This document shows positions 33,133 through 44,005 of a DNA stretch of 64,000 bases, in pieces. Every line of letters begins with the position of its first letter. The first letter of the stretch is position 1. The DNA is from Dictyostelium discoideum. Its lineage: Eukaryota. The position numbers and the translations under genes were made by a program. Below the pieces are notes generated by a model. That model was not told the origin of the DNA, made no database searches, and was given only the letters and a program-made list of their open reading frames with translations. The stretch covers positions 1,056,001 to 1,120,000 of the forward strand of contig CM000154.2 of NCBI GenBank assembly GCA_000004695.1. The letters are read 5' to 3'.

Positions 33133-36100
33133 ATGGGTAATACATTTACTTATTTCCAAAATGAATCAGAAAATAATTTACCATCATTTAAAATACCAAA
33201 AATACCAACATTTGAAGAAATTTCAAGTAAACTATCAAAAGAAGGAGTAACAAAAAAAAAATTGGAAGAAATTTTTGAAGAATGTTGTTTTATGTCAATT
33301 GATTTCTTTTTTGATAAATATAAATCAAGTGATTTATTAAAATGTTTACACCGTATGTTATATATATATATATATTTATTAATAATAAAAATAATAAAAA
33401 TATTAATAATTTTTTAATTTTAAAAAAAATAGAAAATCAAAAAGTAGAATGGATGTTTAAATGTAAACAATGTTCAAATGATGCATGTGGATATATTTGT
33501 TGTAAATGTTTTTTAAATGGTAATCATATTGAAGAAGGTCATACATTTTCATTGTATGAGAGTCAAATAAATGATTTTTGTGATTGTGGTAATGAAGAAA
33601 TATTAAAAAAGAGTGGATTTTGTTCAACACATGCTGGAGTTAATGAAAAGAGTAAAAAAGAGATCATTGATAGATTACCATTCTTTATAAAAAAAGATGT
33701 TCATATTTTCTTTAGATACCTTTTTCAATATTTACAAAACCTTACAACATCGATTTTGTTAGAGAAAAATTCAGCATCGGTTGAAGTTATTATTGGTTGG
33801 TTAAAAGAGATTTGCTCAGTTTCTTCAATATTGGTTCATATCATTGCTGAAGAATTCACATCAAGACAATTGGAGATTGGTGAAGATTCAAAGAGTAGAT
33901 TTAAATTGAATGAACATAAACCATTGCCATACAAAAATGAAGCAGAATCAATTCAAAGACTATGGGAGTCACATCATTTCTTGGGTTACATTTTCTCAAA
34001 AGTGGCCATATTGGATAAATTCTTACCATTGTTATCATTGTTGGTTGATAATCATAGTACTTTTAAAGTATCGGTTTTCGAAGAGTATTTAAAGAATTTC
34101 ATTACCATTTTCGCTCCAAGGGATAGAGCATCGTCACGTATTATGCAGTTTTTGGGTATTGTTTACATTGAAAATATAAAGATATCATTACCATTTGCAA
34201 CGGGTTATTCACGTCATAATGTAATCGAGTTAATACTTCGTAGTCATAAAACCATCTATGTTCCATTGCTTTTACCATTTTATCAATCATCAAGTTCAAA
34301 AGATATTACCAAGGAGGTTATGTTACAAACTGATGTACCAGCAATACCAAAGCTATTGAAAGAACCATCAGTAGTAAGATATTTTTGTTCTCAAAGTGAT
34401 AAATTCAAATTACTCTTTGAATATGCCAGAGAGTTACATAAATTCACATCACTTCAATTTGTTGATCCTTCAATTTCAACTACAAAATTCTTATTGGTAC
34501 AAGAATTGAATTTGATAGCCTCTGTAAAGAATATAATGGTTACATTGGATGGAATGGTGGGTGATACTGAATTCCGTCAAGAAATTATTGATTCAATTGC
34601 AGAGAAATTGGTTTCAAATATTGGTGAAATTAAGAAAAGACCTGTGTTTGAGAGATGTGGTATCAAATTACCACATAAGGATTTCTTTCAAAAGTTTACC
34701 TATGCAGAGATACCAGTTCATTTCCCATTGTATCGTATGTTATCAACTTTTCTATTAATGACTAAAATGGATCCATCTTTACTCTATACCAAATATGGTA
34801 TGCTTGAATCGGATGTCATTGATATGGTCCATACGATCGTGTTATTCAGAGTTTTTTATATCACATATGATCCAACTGAAACCTTGGAGAATTGTACCGA
34901 TATAACAATGACAAATGATTTACATATTTTACAAGTTGCAGTTTGTTTATTAGGTTCAAAGAAGTTTTTATATTCATTCTTCAATGTCGTTTCATCGATT
35001 GAACCAACACCAAGTGCATTCAATGAAGCATTCTCCATATTGGTTTCATCATTACAAATTCGTGCAACATTGGTACCAACTAAAAAAGTTATTGAATTTC
35101 ATTTGTTACAAGGATTATTTTCAAATATATTCTTTAAAACTCATTTCCGTTCATTTGATTCAGTTTTAATGGGTGTTAGTGAAAATGATATTTGTGAAAC
35201 CTATATCAATGAATTGGCCGAACCAACTGGTAGAGCATTGGAATTGAAAGATCAAGATAATTGGAAATACTATGACCCTTATTATCCACATTTCTCTCTA
35301 ACCTATCGTAATGCAATTCAAAATGGTTCAAAGAAAAGATTTAAAAAATATATGGAATCAAAGAAAATCCCATCCGAATCAAATCCATTACCACCAGTCT
35401 TAGAGGAGTTACCAACAGAGTTATTGGGATTAACTAAAATTTTCAATGATCAAACTTTAATTGAAATCATTTTTTGTATATTGGCCGATTGTTTATATCC
35501 AACATTTATTGGTTATGATAATAGTATTGAACTTCAACCAATTCTTAAAATGATCATTTCAAATCCACAAATCATTTTAAATGATTTCTTTTATCTTTTA
35601 GTATTATCAATTAAATCATTCAAAGAGATTACTTTACCAATTTTAACAAAATCGGAAATAGATGAAATTGTAAATTCTGTAATTAATTTCTTTGATCATG
35701 AAAAATTAATTAAAACTCAAATTTTAATTAATAATTCAACTGATCAAAATGAAAAAGAAAAGTTATTAATAGAAAATCAAGATAAAATTTTAGAAAATTT
35801 AACAGATAATATTAAAATTAATTATGATGAAACTACTACTACTACTACTACAACCTCAATTGAAGAAAAAGAAAATGTTAATGATAAAGAAATATTTGAT
35901 TCATTAAAAGAAGAAGAAAAAGAAAAAGAAGAAGAAAAAGAAAAAGATAAAGAGAATGAAGAAATTGTAGTTGAAAAAGAAAAATTAAAAGAATTTAGTT
36001 TTAATGGTAAAGATAATGTAATCTATAATTTATTACGTGTTTATAATGTTGAAGTTAAAATTGGTTTTAAAGAGAGATTATCAGTCTTGGATTTACTTTT

Positions 36101-38480
36101 CAAATTTTGGGATTTAATGACAAATCAAACTCAGTATTTACAATTACGTGGAAGTTTATTATACATTTTCAGTTTTTTGAAAGAATTTGATCCAATCTTT
36201 CAAAAAGTATTTGATGAACATAAAGTTGATCTTGTTCACGATGTCGAACATTCAAATCAAGATGATTTAGCTCATAAAAAATCAATGGCCGAAAAGAGAT
36301 TAAAATTATTAGAACAAATGAAAAAACAACAACAATCATTCTTTGATGATTTATCAGATCAAGAAGGGGAAGAAGAAGAAGGAAAAGGACAAGACAATAA
36401 AAAAGATGAAAAAGATGATAAAAAAGATGATAAAAAAGAAAATGAAAATAAAGAAAATAAAGATAATGAAAATAAAGATAATGAAAATAAAGATAATGAA
36501 AATAAAGATAATGAAAAAGAATTAAATGATAAATCAAATATTGATGATGGTAGAAATGAAACAACGGTGACAACAAAAGTAAAAATAATTGAAGAAGTAG
36601 AAGAAGAAGAAGAAGAAGAAAATATAATAAAAATTGAAAAAGTTGAAGAAAAAGTTGAAGAAAAAGAAAAAGAAAAACATAAACATGATCATGATCATGA
36701 AAATGAAGATGAAGATGAACATAGTGAATTCGAACCATGTGTAGTTTGTAAACTTTCAGAAAAAGCTGGTAGATTATTTGCAATAGCATATGTTGACTTA
36801 TCATCAGTTTCTCATCAAAATACAAAACAATCAATTGATGAAATTAAAATGGATAAATTGAATGTTGGTTACAATGAAAATTATAAAAAATTTTTAGAGA
36901 AATATTATTCAATACTTAAACAAAATTCAGCTAAAACCATCCCAACTGGAGAAAAACCAGAAAGTTTTTCAGTTTATTTATTCTCGAATTCAGTATCAAC
37001 CTATGTAACTTCATGTGGTCATAATATTCATAAGAGATGTTTTGACAACCTTATGAAGGGCCAACCATTGGATCCATTTCTTGCAACAGCTTTCAAGTGT
37101 CCACTTTGTAATAGACATTCAAATATTACAATTGTGTTGGGTGAGCCAAATGATACCATTCAATATAGATCCTATGTTGAGGATCTCTTTAAAAAGTTAT
37201 GTTACTATGATTTCGTATCATTGATGAACAAAGATTCAATGTATAGTATCGATGAATACCTTTGGAAATTCATTATTCAAAATATTGAAACCTTGGAATT
37301 GAAGAGTAGAAAAACCACTCTATACAATGACAATGATCAACAGCCAGCTTACTTTTTAATGTCAGAACATGACTTCCAAAGAGAGCTCACCACAACTGCT
37401 CGTTTACATAGAGTGATTGCACAAGTTGACTTTAAACAAAAAGTTCCACATGCAGAGTTACCAATTAGAAATAATGGTATCTTTTTCTCTGATGCATTCA
37501 TTGCTTCATCCTATTCAATTTGGTTATGCAAATTTCATCCATCTCAATTATTTGATATCATTTTAGATGGTTTACAATATTATATCTTTAAAATGGTAAT
37601 TCATCATTGTATAAAGAATAATATAATGCCAACCACTGGTGATGAAAATACAAACCAATACATTTCAAATGCTATCAATCTAATCACCAATGAATTCAAT
37701 CGTTTATTTTATGGTGAAAAACCATTATTAGACAATGATAATACATTTAGAGAAGAGTTTATCAATCAATTACTTCCATTCGTTAGAAAATTATATTTAC
37801 TCTATATCATTATCTCAAGAGCAAATCCAAAACAACCTCAACCACCGATATTAACAATGGAGAAATTAACCGATATTAACTATTGTTTAAGTTGTTTCAA
37901 ATTCAATGGTTTACTCGATATGGTTAATATAGTTTGTTCAAAAGCAAACTTTGAAAATACTCTCAATCAATTCTTGAGAAAGGATAAAATGACCTCACAA
38001 CTTTCAGCTTTTCCTCAAGTATTTTGTAGTTTCCCACCACCTTTGAAATATGATTCCTTACCAAAATGGATTGATCTCCCAACTAGATTTGTAGATTTTA
38101 TGAAAGATCATCTATTTGCTGGTCATTGTTCAAAATGTGGTGCTTTATTAAAATTGGTTTGTTTAATGTGTGGTAATTGTTCATGTGAAACTTCATCTTG
38201 CAGAATCGATTTATTCTTTCACAAACCTTCTTGTTGTACTCAATATCCATTGGCATTTTACCATGCAATCGATAGACCATTTGCAAAATCTTTCAAACTT
38301 GAACAAGGATTTTTAAAAGCTCAAACTCCAACATTCATCAGCATCTATTTGGATCAAAATGGTCATAAAATCGCTACACCTTCAATTCATGCAAAATTAT
38401 CAAATAAGAAACTTTCCAAACTTTATAAATGTTGGATTGATTGTAGTAATAGAAGAAAATATTTCATTGAGAAAAAATAG
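33133..38480 (+). CDS. UBR-box E3 ubiquitin ligase (N-recognin, UBR1/2/3-like), about 1755 aa, two exons: join(33133..33352,33433..38480).
   Basis: Donor GTATGT at 33353 (phase 1), acceptor aaaaaatag at 33432. UBR-box Cys/His array ..KCKQCSNDACGYICCKCFLNGNHIEEGHTFSLYESQINDFCDCGNEEILKKSGFCSTHAG... A C-terminal RING-like segment ..CVVCKL..CGHNIHKRCFDNL..FKCPLCNRH.. and the UBR C-terminal autoinhibitory region are present. Confidence 0.8.
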
Positions 38481-38748: not shown

Positions 38749-38927
38749 ATGATTAAAAGTTTATTATTATTAATATCTATAATTATTGGAATTGTTATTT
38801 CTCAAGAGGGAGCTTACCCACCAGCAGGTATTTATGTTGGACTTTCATCAAATTTCTTAACAACTGAAGGTGAATCTGTAAGTAAAATAATTATATTAAA
38901 TATTAAAGTTTAATTCTAATTTTTATT

Positions 38928-38958
<31 letters not shown>

Positions 38959-40458
38959 TTAACTATTAGCTAACAACATATGCTCAAAATGAATTATTAT
39001 CAATGTCATTACCAGATCAATCAGGATCTTCAAGTAAAGCATCATATACATTCACATCTTTTAAACTTGGTTTAACCTTGGATAATATTTTCTATAATCA
39101 ATTACAAACAGATGTTTATCAAATGTAAATTATAAAATAATCATAATAATAATAATAATCCTAGAAATAATAATTAATAATCCATGATACTAAATTTTTA
39201 AAATTTTTTTTTTGGAAATAGTGGTTGGGAAACAATATCTTTTGAATTACAATGGAATTATCATATTTGTGCAAATGCAATTTTCAATCCATGTGAAAAT
39301 GGTAATATTCAAGTTGGTACAGTTTCAGGAGCATCTGCAGCCGTTGCATCAAATGTTTATGTTGAATTTAATTCAACATCAACATCAATCATTGCAACCA
39401 ATACAACTATGGCATTTGATCAAGGTGCAGTTCAAGTTAATGTACATTGTTCAAATGCAATTTGTGTTATTCCAGTTAGTGATATTGCCAATGAAGTCGC
39501 ACAAAACTTTGTTACTGAGCTCACAAATGGTATCACCAAAGCCATTAATGAACAAGTTCCAACCATCGAAGCATTATTTACACCAATTAAACAAATTCCA
39601 ATGACTCTTTCAAATGGTGATTCATTTTGGATCAATTTAGAGGGTACTTTAGTTGAAGAGAGTAATCCAACCGCTGATTTACCAACAATTACCGCTGCTT
39701 TAAATGGTGGTGTAATTTTAGAGAATACTGATGGTAATTTCGTTTATCCATCACAAATTCCATCCTACATTCCAACCGATTCACAATTGGAATCTTTCAC
39801 TAGTGACTATAGTATTGTTGTAACTGGATTTTTCATTGAATCTTTATTTGACGCTGTTTTCGCTTCAGCTTTACCAATGACAATCAATCCAAGTCAAGTT
39901 CCATCGGCTTCACCTGTTCAATTGAATACTAGTGATGGCTTTTTCAGTGGTGTTGCTCCAGGTTTATCTCAATACCCAAATCTTGGAATTCAAGTTAATT
40001 GTTATTCACCCGTTACTCCATTGGTTAGTATTAACTCATCAGCAATCTCTTTATTCAATTTGGAATTATCAGCTGATTTCATCATTTTAAATGGTGATAA
40101 TCCATTCACTGCTTTCACTGTTTTATTCACAATCGATGCTTCTCTTTCAACTGAAATCCTCACTGATTCTCCTTCAACTTTTTCTTTAAATTCAACTCTT
40201 GCCTCTATGACTCCAAACGCTACAATCGTCACTAGTACCATTGGCTCAGTTGATGCAACTGGTTTCGTACAATTAATGCAAATGGTACAAGGTGTAATTA
40301 AATTACCTTCTCCAGCTTATTCTGTACCTTCAAAATATTCAATGTCAAATGTTGAATTACAACTTGGTACTCAAGTAATTCAAATCACTTTTGATTTAAT
40401 TGATTCCTCTTTACTAGAAAAACAAAAAATTATTAAAAAATCTATAAATTTTAATTGA
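38749..40458 (+). CDS. Secreted ~506-aa protein, paralogue A of a tandem pair (possible BPI/LBP/CETP-like two-domain lipid-binding fold; speculative). Exons: join(38749..38877,38970..39124,39222..40458).
   Basis: Signal peptide MIKSLLLLISIIIGIVISQ. Donors GTAAGT at 38878 and GTAAAT at 39125; acceptors at 38969 and 39221. Intron phases 0 and 2, identical to paralogue B. Confidence 0.6.
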
Positions 40459-40776
40459 ATATATAAAACGAAATAAAATAAAATAAAATAAATAAAAAAA
40501 TTATTTGTAATAATATTTTAAAAAATAAATATCAAATTCCAATTATTCTTAATTTTAACTAGATTCATGATGATTGATACTCCTCTTGTTTAATACTTGA
40601 TTGTGGTGGTAGTGGCTGTGGTTGAAATTTAATATTTTAAATTCAAACAATAACTATTGTAATAGAGTAATAGGGTTTTAAATACACTTAATTCACCTTT
40701 TTTCTTTATTATAAATAATATTAAATTAAAATAAAATTAAAAAAATAATGATGAAACTACATTAGTTGTTGATCTA

Positions 40777-40900
40777 CCTCCAAAAAATGATGATCCATCT
40801 CTCTCTGGTTGTTGTGGTTGTTTAAAACTACTAGATCCGCCTCCAAAAAATGATGATACATCTTTTTCTGTTTGTGGTGGTTGTGATTTAGTTGGTGTTT
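40777..40900. repeat. Two tandem ~63-bp repeat units (CCTCCAAAAAATGATGATMCATCTYTYTCTGKTTGTGGTKGTT..) in a GC-richer island between the paralogues
   Basis: Seen directly. Minus-strand frames give ..KDVSSFFGGGSSSFKQPQQPERDGSSFFGGRSTT.. and a signal-peptide-like MVMVWLLLSLLLYYLIF.. at 41050, but no consistent gene model could be built. Confidence 0.6.
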
Positions 40901-41290
40901 GAAGTGGTTTTTGTTATTGTTGTTGTGGTGGGTTGTGTTTGTGGTACTTGTGAAACCAACTTAAATATATGTTTCTTTATTTTCTTATAATAATAAAAAA
41001 ATCAAATAATACAAGAGCAACGACAACAATAACCAGACCATCACCATTGTTTAGATGCAAATTGTTTTTTGTTTTTATTTTAATTAAATTTCCAAAAGAT
41101 TTTTTTTCTTTTTTTTTTTATTTTTTTTTTTTTATTAAAAAAAAAAAAACCCAAACACTTTTTTTTATTATAATAATTATTCCTCATAATCCATGTATTT
41201 AAAAAAATAAAAAAATTATTCTTCATAATACATGTATTTTAAAAAATAAAATATATATATATATAAATATATTTATTTATTCAAAATAAA

Positions 41291-42986
41291 ATGAATAAAA
41301 CTATCATACTTTTATTAATTTCAATTATTTTTGAAATAGTAATATCATCATCCGTTGATGGTAATTATCCAGCTGGAGGTTTATATTTTGGTGTATCATC
41401 AAATTTCTTGGTTGGTGAATCTGAAAAGGTATTTATCAATCATTAATTGTCCCTTAATTTCGTAAATATTAACCTAAATTTAAAAAAAAAAATAAAATAA
41501 AAAATATATATATAGTTTACTCAATATGTTCAAGATGAATTATTAGCAATGGATTTGCCAGATCAATCAGGTGATTCAGATGGAGTACAATATTCATTTA
41601 CTCATTTTAAACTTGCATTAAATTTACAAGATTTCTTTTATGCACAATTAGGACCTGGTGTTTTTCAAATGTAATTCAAATATTTTATTTAAAAAAAAAA
41701 AAAAAAAAAGAGATTATAAAACTTTGTTAACTTTGTTATATCTATCTTTTTTAAAATTAGGGGATGGGATACTATTACATTTAATTTACAATGGGAATAT
41801 GAAATTTGTGTTAAAAAAGTTGTAAAACTTTGTGAATCAGGCACAATTACAGTTTATACAGCAAGTGGTCAAAGTGTATCATTAGGAACTACATTAGATG
41901 TTTTATTTAATTCATCAAATGCAAAGATTGAGGCAACATCAACTGTTATGCCATTTGAGGCGGGGGCAGTGGTTGCAAGTGTACATTGTACAGATTCGGT
42001 TTGTTTAATACCAATCAATGATATCGTGAGTGAAGTTTCATCACAATTTGTATCACAAGTTACAAATGGTGTTACAAAGGCTATAAATGATAAAGCCCCC
42101 TCTATTGAGCAACTGTTTACACCAATTAAACAGATACCAATAACTATGGATAGTGGTAACCAATATTGGATTGATTTAGAGGGTTGTTTAGTTGAAGCTA
42201 ATTATAGTTCAAATTCACCATCCACCATTACCGCTGCTATTAATGGTGGTATAGTTTTAGAGAATACTGATGGTAATTTCGTTTACCCAACTCAAACACC
42301 ATCCTATGTACCATACGATTCACAAATGGAGTCTTTCACATCAGACTACTGTATCACTATCACTGGTTACTTTATTGAGACCCTGTTGGATGCTGTATTG
42401 GTACCAGAGTTTCCAATGACAATTCAACCATCACAAATACCAGCTTCATCACCAGTTCAATTGAATACAAGTTCTGATTTCTTTAGTGGTATCGCTCCAA
42501 ATTTAACCTCTAAATATCCAAATGTTGGTATTCAAGTGAATTTAATGCCACCAACAATACCAACGGTTACGATCAATTCAAGTGCTATCATTTTAACAGA
42601 TTTTGAAATTTCAACTTCATTTTTAGTGTTAACTGATAATGATGATGCTATTCCTGTTTTCAATGTTTTGTTCAAATTTGATGCTGAAATCCAAACCACC
42701 CTTTATACTGATAGTGTCTCTGTTTTCTCTTTAAATTCAACATTACTATCAATAACACCAAATGTAACCATAACTGATTCAAACGTTGGTTCTGTCGATG
42801 CCACTGGTTTTGTTCAACTAATTGAAATGGCACAATCTATAATTAAAATTCCATCAATAACTTATCCTGTACCTTCAAAATATTCAATAACAAATGTAAA
42901 TTCACAACTTGGTGATCAAATAATTCAACTTACTTTTGATTTAATTGAAAATTCAACTAATCAAAAATATCTTAAAAAATCTGTAA

Positions 42987-43018
<32 letters not shown>

Positions 43019-43021
43019 TGA
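41291..43021 (+). CDS. Secreted ~517-aa protein, paralogue B of the tandem pair. Exons: join(41291..41428,41516..41670,41761..43021).
   Basis: Signal peptide MNKTIILLLISIIFEIVISS. Same exon structure as A (exon 2 is 155 nt in both). Throughout the alignment it reads, for example, MPFEAGAVVASVHCTDSVCLIPINDIVSEV.. in B against MAFDQGAVQVNVHCSNAICVIPVSDIANEV.. in A. Confidence 0.6.
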
Positions 43022-43193: not shown

Positions 43194-44005
43194 TTAGTTT
43201 TGACTAATACCACCGCTACTATTACTATTGATGGATGAAACTAAAATTGTTGGACGTCTTTGTGGAATTTTTGATTTTAAACTTGATTGTGTTGATGAAA
43301 AGGATGAATTTGGTATATTTTCTTTTGTTGAAGTTGGTGGTATTAATGATTTTCTTGGTATTTTCGAAACAGTTGATGATGATGATGATGATATTGATGA
43401 CGATGACGATAAAACTGACATTCTTGGAGCAATTGATTTTCTCTGTTTAAGTGCACGTGGTGATTGTTGAATTATTTGTTGTGGTTGGATTGTTTGAATT
43501 GGTTGAATTGGTTGTTGTAAAGAAGATTGTAATGAAGTTAATTCTGAAAATTTTAAATCATGTTCTCTTTGTTTTAATTGTTGTTCAAATTCAAGTAATT
43601 GTTTTTTCTTTTCTAAATATTTCTTTTGTGATATTTCTAATTCCTTTTCTTTATCTTCCAATTGTTTAGTTTTAATTTCAATCTCTGAAACTGTTTGATT
43701 TAATTCCACTGCCAATTGTCTAAGTTTTTCTTTTTCATCCTCAATTTCAAATTCCTTTTCATCCAATCTAAATTCTTTTTCATTTAATTCTTTTTCTTTT
43801 AATTGAATTCTTTGTTCTTCAAATTTTATTTTCTCTTTTTCTTGTCTATTCTCTTCTCTTTGACATTCAATTTCAAATAATTGTTCATCTAAATTACTTA
43901 CATTATCACTTTTTTTTTTTTTAAAATTATACAAAAAAAATATTTATAATAATAATAGTAATATTAATAAAAAAAAAAAAATTAATAAATCATATATATA
44001 TTTGG

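Follow-up and report, generated by a model that had tools for sequence, protein, structure and literature searches.

We analysed a 64,000-nucleotide stretch of the Dictyostelium discoideum genome (assembly GCA_000004695.1, contig CM000154.2, positions 1,056,001 to 1,120,000 of the forward strand; hereafter the window, in whose coordinates all positions are given). At 38749-43021 it carries two head-to-tail genes encoding related proteins, referred to below as A (gene 1) and B (gene 2). Both gene models were built by hand directly from the window DNA and comprise the following features.

38749-40458, plus strand: gene 1, DDB_G0288095 (Q54JE8, UPF0522 protein A, BpiA), three exons, 506 amino acids
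38749-38877 (129 nt), 38970-39124 (155 nt) and 39222-40458, plus strand: exons of gene 1, ending in a TGA stop
38749-38805, plus strand: putative signal-peptide-like N-terminus of gene 1, MIKSLLLLISIIIGIVISQ..., placed by hydrophobicity
38878-38969, plus strand: intron 1 of gene 1, 92 nt, phase 0, GT...AG, an ancient intron position
39125-39221, plus strand: intron 2 of gene 1, 97 nt, phase 2, specific to the A/B lineage
40459-41290, no strand: spacer between genes 1 and 2, 832 bp, AT-rich
41291-43021, plus strand: gene 2, DDB_G0288097 (Q54JE7, UPF0522 protein B), three exons, 517 amino acids
41291-41428 (138 nt), 41516-41670 (155 nt) and 41761-43021, plus strand: exons of gene 2, ending in a TGA stop
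41429-41515, plus strand: intron 1 of gene 2, 87 nt, phase 0
41671-41760, plus strand: intron 2 of gene 2, 90 nt, phase 2
42995-43021, plus strand: C-terminal extension LKKKKKKK of gene 2 plus stop, specific to strain AX4, poly(A) read-through

A tandem pair of three-exon paralogues

An earlier reading of the DNA (the original prediction) had proposed a tandem pair of secreted paralogues here, and the ends it gave coincide exactly with the gene 1 ATG and the gene 2 stop codon. The two genes lie on one strand with a gap of 832 bp, close to the 800 bp or so that had been proposed, and the identical three-exon structure, the 155-nt second exon and the equal intron positions and phases are all as described. 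All four introns are of the GT...AG type and 87-97 nt long; intron 1 is in phase 0 and intron 2 in phase 2 in both genes, and each falls in the matching column of the protein alignment. Short introns of this kind are typical of Dictyostelium. The spliced translations are exact full-length matches to XP_636902.1 / Q54JE8 and XP_636903.1 / Q54JE7 of D. discoideum AX4, so the exon models are the annotated AX4 models.

The two proteins are collinear, with 281 of 496 residues identical by BLASTP (57%, 566 bits, E = 0), and a MAFFT alignment of 504 codons gave 57.5% amino-acid and 67.7% nucleotide identity. The amino-acid values lie within the 50-60% that had been estimated, and the likeness of the two proteins is far above chance.

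Both genes are already present in the AX4 reference annotation, and the relationship of the family to the bactericidal permeability-increasing protein BPI has already been recorded; the finding is to that extent an ordinary one and carries little weight as a discovery. In an antibody resource (PMC7149914), Q54JE8 / DDB_G0288095 appears as 'Bactericidal permeability-increasing protein BpiA', for which the recombinant antibodies RB345-348 have been published, and Q55BA2 / DDB_G0271242 as BpiC. The supplementary tables of an RNA sequencing (RNA-seq) study (PMC7078664) also describe DDB_G0288095, as a 'putative bactericidal permeability-increasing protein'. Searches of the literature for Q54JE7, DDB_G0288097, bpiB or UPF0522 returned nothing concerning the B copy, so the name 'bpiB' would be an extrapolated one rather than an attested one. 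What is added here is modest: a duplication dated by an intron, asymmetric divergence of the copies, a non-tandem order in D. firmibasis, the loss of a stop codon in AX4 and the acidity of the family.

Predicted structures place both proteins in the BPI/LBP/CETP family

AlphaFold2 gave models with a predicted local distance difference test score (pLDDT) of 80.7 and a predicted template modelling score (pTM) of 0.76 for gene 1, and 79.7 and 0.74 for gene 2. Each model is composed of two barrels, with a long helix packed on a curved sheet; the N-barrel spans approximately residues 28-213 and the C-barrel residues 290-490, and the two are linked via a central sheet. These barrels correspond to the two similar beta-rich halves anticipated by the original prediction. 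When the models were compared with the PDB using Foldseek, BPI ranked first for both (E 4.7e-27 for gene 1 and 1.7e-27 for gene 2), followed by LBP and CETP, with E-values between 1e-20 and 1e-27 overall and 494-519 columns aligned. The single-TULIP proteins Takeout, JHBP, SPLUNC1 and Der p 7 occupied the lower ranks, and BPI and LBP outscored CETP in all of the structural searches.

Sequence comparison reaches the same family from a greater distance. Gene 2 matches the Pfam family PF02886 (LBP_BPI_CETP_C) with 30.3 bits against a cut-off of 23 (E 3.6e-7), while gene 1 has no match to PF02886 at E<=0.01 and gene 2 has none to PF01273. Across 14 close family members PF02886 is matched by 6 and PF01273 by 1 at E<=0.01, and the N-domain is recognised only through the predicted structures. 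A search of PDB sequences with gene 1 as a single sequence found no match; only a profile built from 14 family sequences led to human BPI (E 4.6e-6), where it aligned to the region of the C-domain. In a database of 1.84 billion representative proteins this profile collected 332 relatives at E<=0.001, and the named top matches among these were from dictyostelids and other Amoebozoa. On the strength of the models, the double-TULIP BPI/LBP/CETP fold, which had been put forward as compatible with the sequence, is confirmed as the predicted fold of both proteins.

Sequence features suggest acidic secreted or lumenal proteins

Both N-termini are hydrophobic and signal-like, with top 19-residue Kyte-Doolittle means of 2.2-2.5 at residues 1-6, the peak of gene 1 being at residues 1-5, in keeping with the signal peptides that had been proposed, and the same 19-residue scan detected no later segment of transmembrane grade in either protein. 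In the gene 1 model residues 1-21 have a pLDDT below 50, and residues 3-13 form a detached helix. The gene 1 protein contains six N-x-S/T sequons and the gene 2 protein nine. By their signal-like N-termini and lack of a membrane anchor, A and B appear to be proteins of a secreted or lumenal type.

The mature proteins are strongly acidic, with an isoelectric point (pI) of 4.05 and a net charge of -31 for A, and a pI of 4.24 and a net charge of -26 for B; the N-domains taken separately have pI values of 4.05-4.11 and a net charge of -17 each. At pH 4 the calculated net charge is -2 for A and +6 for B. Neither of the mature proteins, each of about 490 residues, contains a single arginine. Arginine depletion is family-wide, with two residues in BpiC and one in the D. 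purpureum orthologue, and it might be linked to life in a protease-rich, very acidic compartment. BpiC (pI 4.39) and the remaining dictyostelid members are likewise acidic. Four N-domain cysteines are invariant across the family (C111, C119, C171 and C176 in gene 1 numbering), and in the gene 1 model C171 and C176 lie where the last strand meets the long helix.

Comparison with BpiC and with vertebrate BPI-fold proteins

The closest characterised relative is BpiC (DDB_G0271242, Q55BA2, UPF0522 protein C), to which A and B are each 36% identical over approximately 490 residues (E 1e-103 to 1e-104), and which is the only family member with genetic data. It resembles A and B in organism, family, length, signal peptide and the four N-domain cysteines, shares with them the phase-0 intron 1, and is comparably acidic. 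It differs in belonging to a separate, older paralogue clade, the second dictyostelid clade of the profile search, which has its own orthologues in D. purpureum, T. lacteum and C. fasciculata; its gene lies on a different chromosome record from the A/B pair, and its second intron is found elsewhere (phase 0, after residue 201). Knockouts of bpiC show a slower loss of fluorescence from ingested K. pneumoniae and E. coli (PMC8545105), and for K. pneumoniae it is the permeabilisation of the bacteria that is slowed and not their initial killing (PMC10107278).

Human BPI (PDB: 1bp1, 1ewf) has the same two TULIP barrels, is secreted or located in the granule lumen and is of similar length (about 456-500 residues), yet its sequence identity to A and B is merely 13-16%. 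Human BPI is described as cationic (PMC11048543), in contrast to the pI values of about 4.05-4.24 and the lack of arginine in A and B, and a strongly cationic N-domain, which is the mark of BPI sensu stricto, is found in neither of them. The N-domain of BPI also contains a disulphide, Cys135-Cys175, that ties its fifth and sixth elements together (PMC5507252), whereas A and B instead have the four invariant cysteines. The family's extreme acidity argues against transferring the cationic BPI mechanism to these proteins unchanged.

LBP (PDB: 4m4d), CETP (PDB: 2obd) and PLTP are secreted lipid carriers that share the two-domain fold of A and B and match them structurally over their full length (E 1e-20 to 1e-24). 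They are only 12-16% identical to A and B, and circulate in vertebrate plasma, where their ligands and partners are defined. LBP works with CD14 and TLR4, and CETP with lipoproteins; amoebae are not known to possess such ligands or partners.

The duplication is younger than the D. purpureum split

In a neighbour-joining tree (200 bootstraps, computed with a numpy implementation), the A proteins and the B proteins each group with 100% support and are sisters to one another. The single D. purpureum gene falls outside this pair of clades (94% bootstrap), and the BpiC-type genes form an older clade. The introns carry the same history. Intron 1 recurs in the same alignment column and phase in A and B, in bpiC and in the orthologues of D. 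purpureum and P. violaceum. Intron 2, to which the second exon owes its length of 155 nt, is confined to the A and B genes of D. discoideum, D. citrinum and D. firmibasis; bpiC lacks it, as do the single-copy orthologues of D. purpureum and P. violaceum. The pattern looks like an intron gained in this lineage shortly before the duplication, the alternative being two independent losses. The tree and the distribution of intron 2 together place the duplication after the split from D. purpureum and before the divergence of D. firmibasis, D. citrinum and D. discoideum. The pair is a duplicate of a single ancestral gene, dated by a shared lineage-specific intron.

Since then the copies have diverged unequally. 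A relative-rate test with D. purpureum as the outgroup counted 86 unique amino-acid changes in B against 39 in A (p 2.6e-5), and B also exceeds A in rate among the copies of D. citrinum and D. firmibasis. Between orthologues, compared in pairs among these two species and D. discoideum, the ratio of non-synonymous to synonymous substitution rates (ω = dN/dS) is 0.16-0.18 for A and 0.10-0.12 for B, and the open reading frames of both copies are intact in every species and strain seen. Both copies are therefore under strong purifying selection today. The direct comparison of A with B gave dN 0.34 and dS of about 0.8 (0.8-1.8 depending on the method); since dS is close to saturation, the resulting ω of 0.41 (NG86) is of little value and was discarded as unreliable in favour of the orthologue pairs. 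The original prediction had spoken of an old local duplication kept under selection. The substitution rates and the low ω of the orthologues bear out divergence under constraint; 'old' holds only in a relative sense, the event being younger than the D. purpureum split, and 'local' is qualified by a tandem order that is not universal.

The two genes share one long run of identical nucleotides, 31 nt at 39716-39746 and 42256-42286 (encoding LENTDGNFVY), in coding sequences that are elsewhere 68% identical. Over the 50 codons around this run, third positions agree in 90% of the codons whose amino acid is the same in both proteins. The run may be a micro gene-conversion tract; merely two derived changes in the B copy are directed towards A when it is compared with D. 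citrinum and D. firmibasis, so gene conversion is not demonstrated.

Gene 2 also differs between strains at its 3' end. Where a second D. discoideum assembly has AAT TAA, AX4 has AAT TTA AAA...; an additional T in AX4 removes the stop codon, and a poly(A) tract is translated as far as the TGA at 43019-43021, adding LKKKKKKK; other D. discoideum strains have products of 509 or 511 residues ending ...SVNLN. The AX4 sequence could be a genuine variant or a homopolymer sequencing error.

Alternative histories of the B copy

It might be supposed from these differences that one of the copies, likeliest the faster-evolving B (DDB_G0288097), is a redundant duplicate that is decaying or unexpressed. 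Its excess of lineage-specific changes would fit this, as would an AX4 allele that lacks the normal stop and runs into poly(A) and a literature in which no expression data for B were found. Set against this, B keeps its open reading frame and both introns intact in several D. discoideum strains, in D. citrinum and in D. firmibasis, its orthologues are more constrained than those of A, the protein passes the Pfam cut-off and models as a complete BPI fold, and the AX4 extension amounts to just 8 residues past the conserved end. We regard decay of B as highly improbable.

A different question is whether the copies arose side by side. The tandem arrangement is present in two D. discoideum assemblies and in D. 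citrinum. In D. firmibasis (CM069767.1) the B copy lies approximately 385 kb from A, in the opposite orientation and among unrelated genes, adjoining an AAA/ClpB-like gene and an MBOAT gene; there A alone retains the conserved flanks, with a 1689-aa gene upstream and a 264-aa gene, dCMP deaminase and 2-oxoglutarate dehydrogenase downstream. It is conceivable that B originated at another site on the chromosome, such as it occupies in D. firmibasis, and was placed beside A later, in the lineage of D. discoideum and D. citrinum. The D. discoideum spacer would agree with such an origin in bearing no trace of a duplicated flank: blastn and tblastx comparisons with the sequence following gene 2 and the sequence preceding gene 1 returned only AT-rich, low-complexity matches, so the duplication boundaries are not readable. 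However, neighbours on the same strand, as in D. discoideum and D. citrinum, are what unequal crossing-over usually leaves behind, and a single relocation in D. firmibasis is equally parsimonious. We consider a dispersed origin somewhat unlikely; the one outgroup arrangement fits either direction, a relocation of B in D. firmibasis or a later joining of two separate copies.

Proposed function of the pair

We are confident in a reading of the locus as two AX4 paralogues, bpiA and DDB_G0288097, with a double-TULIP fold, produced by duplication after the D. purpureum split, and probably acting like BpiC as binders of bacterial lipids that help to permeabilise prey. The function proposed for A and B would follow from their homology to BpiC and from the fold. 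Like BpiC, the proteins probably reach the lysosomal and phagosomal lumen or are secreted. Their hydrophobic pockets would then bind lipopolysaccharide or other lipids of bacterial membranes, and this binding may help to permeabilise ingested Gram-negative bacteria. Since A and B are strongly acidic, any such action cannot make use of cationic attraction as that of human BPI does at neutral pH; a near-zero charge at pH 4 would suit the very acidic phagosome that has been described (PMC10107278). As paralogues of BpiC, BpiA and the B protein are obvious candidates for redundancy in bpiC knockouts.

Several observations weigh against this reading. In the searchable literature nothing was found on knockouts, localisation or binding of either BpiA or the B copy. 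Neither protein has the cationic N-terminal domain that underlies the bactericidal action of BPI, the charge of the N-domain being -17, and the match of gene 1 to PF01273, which covers 150 of 168 model positions, scores only 15.7 bits (E 0.013), under the curated cut-off of 28.8. The fold itself fits the transfer of the cell's own lipids, as by CETP and PLTP, equally well. In terms of expression, DDB_G0288095 was detected by RNA-seq and picked as a target for quantitative reverse-transcription PCR (qRT-PCR), and the published primers map to exons 1 and 2, flanking intron 1. Its mean expression in that data set, from vegetative cells, was low, and its RNA-seq response to B. subtilis was among the two results not borne out by qRT-PCR (PMC7078664). 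Expression, which the original prediction left to be checked, was detected for A; for DDB_G0288097 no evidence was found, a weak negative because the RNA-seq table was covered only in part.

The same fold could instead serve a housekeeping or developmental role resembling that of CETP and PLTP, in which A and B, working in the lysosomal lumen or extracellularly, transport phospholipids, sterols or neutral lipids of the amoeba itself and have no direct antibacterial role. The proteins are acidic rather than cationic, bpiC expression did not respond to bacteria in the RNA-seq study, and the B. subtilis response of DDB_G0288095 that failed to reproduce points the same way; full-length CETP/BPI homologues with unknown ligands are moreover found across eukaryotes (PMC5507252). 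The acidity loses its force on comparison with BpiC, which is as acidic as A and B, so that this property does not separate an antibacterial from a lipid-transport function. BpiC, the sole member that has been tested, has an antibacterial phenotype, and BPI and LBP beat CETP in every structural search. We consider a purely endogenous transport role unlikely and favour the binding of bacterial lipids by A and B.

More speculatively, B may have undergone a short burst of amino-acid change after the duplication and then have come under tighter constraint than A, which would point to a distinct ligand or bacterial-target specificity. The whole acidic family would then represent a non-cationic mechanism of the BPI fold tuned to very acidic phagosomes, with three paralogues covering different prey. 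We hold this extended scheme to be doubtful at present. The pair is in any case a young, asymmetrically diverged duplicate that offers context for the study of bacterial killing by amoebae.

The spacer and the neighbouring genes

The core of the spacer (approximately 40760-40960) has a G+C content of 0.36-0.38, against about 0.1 in its flanks. The minus strand at 40560-41060 has a coding-like text with a repeated ...D(V/G)SSFFGG... motif and no single clean open reading frame across it. A conserved small minus-strand gene at this position was considered and rejected, as neither the D. citrinum spacer nor any other compared locus resembles the core; the spacer as a whole likewise gave no detectable match to that of D. 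citrinum, and the second D. discoideum assembly has no gene call in it.

Closer to gene 2, at 41175-41251, is a 39-bp tandem direct repeat of two copies that are 92% identical, with the core TCATAAT[C/A]CATGTATTT. It sits 40-115 bp upstream of the gene 2 start codon and occurs nowhere else in the window. It is present in both D. discoideum assemblies and absent upstream of the B copies of D. citrinum and D. firmibasis. The repeat may be a promoter element.

The window as a whole is strongly AT-rich, with a G+C content of 15-37% in 2-kb bins, and no tRNA genes were found in it. The genes that flank the pair, assigned from gene calls and precomputed Pfam matches, are conserved in D. discoideum, D. 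citrinum and D. firmibasis and are arranged as follows.

33342-38480, plus strand: large gene upstream of gene 1, approximately 1,700-1,755 amino acids, without a Pfam match
43194-43934, minus strand: Ser/Glu/Lys-rich gene downstream of gene 2, approximately 264 amino acids
44710-45531, minus strand: dCMP/cytidine deaminase-type gene, downstream of gene 2
46242 onwards: 2-oxoglutarate dehydrogenase E1 (plus strand), then ribosomal protein L22e

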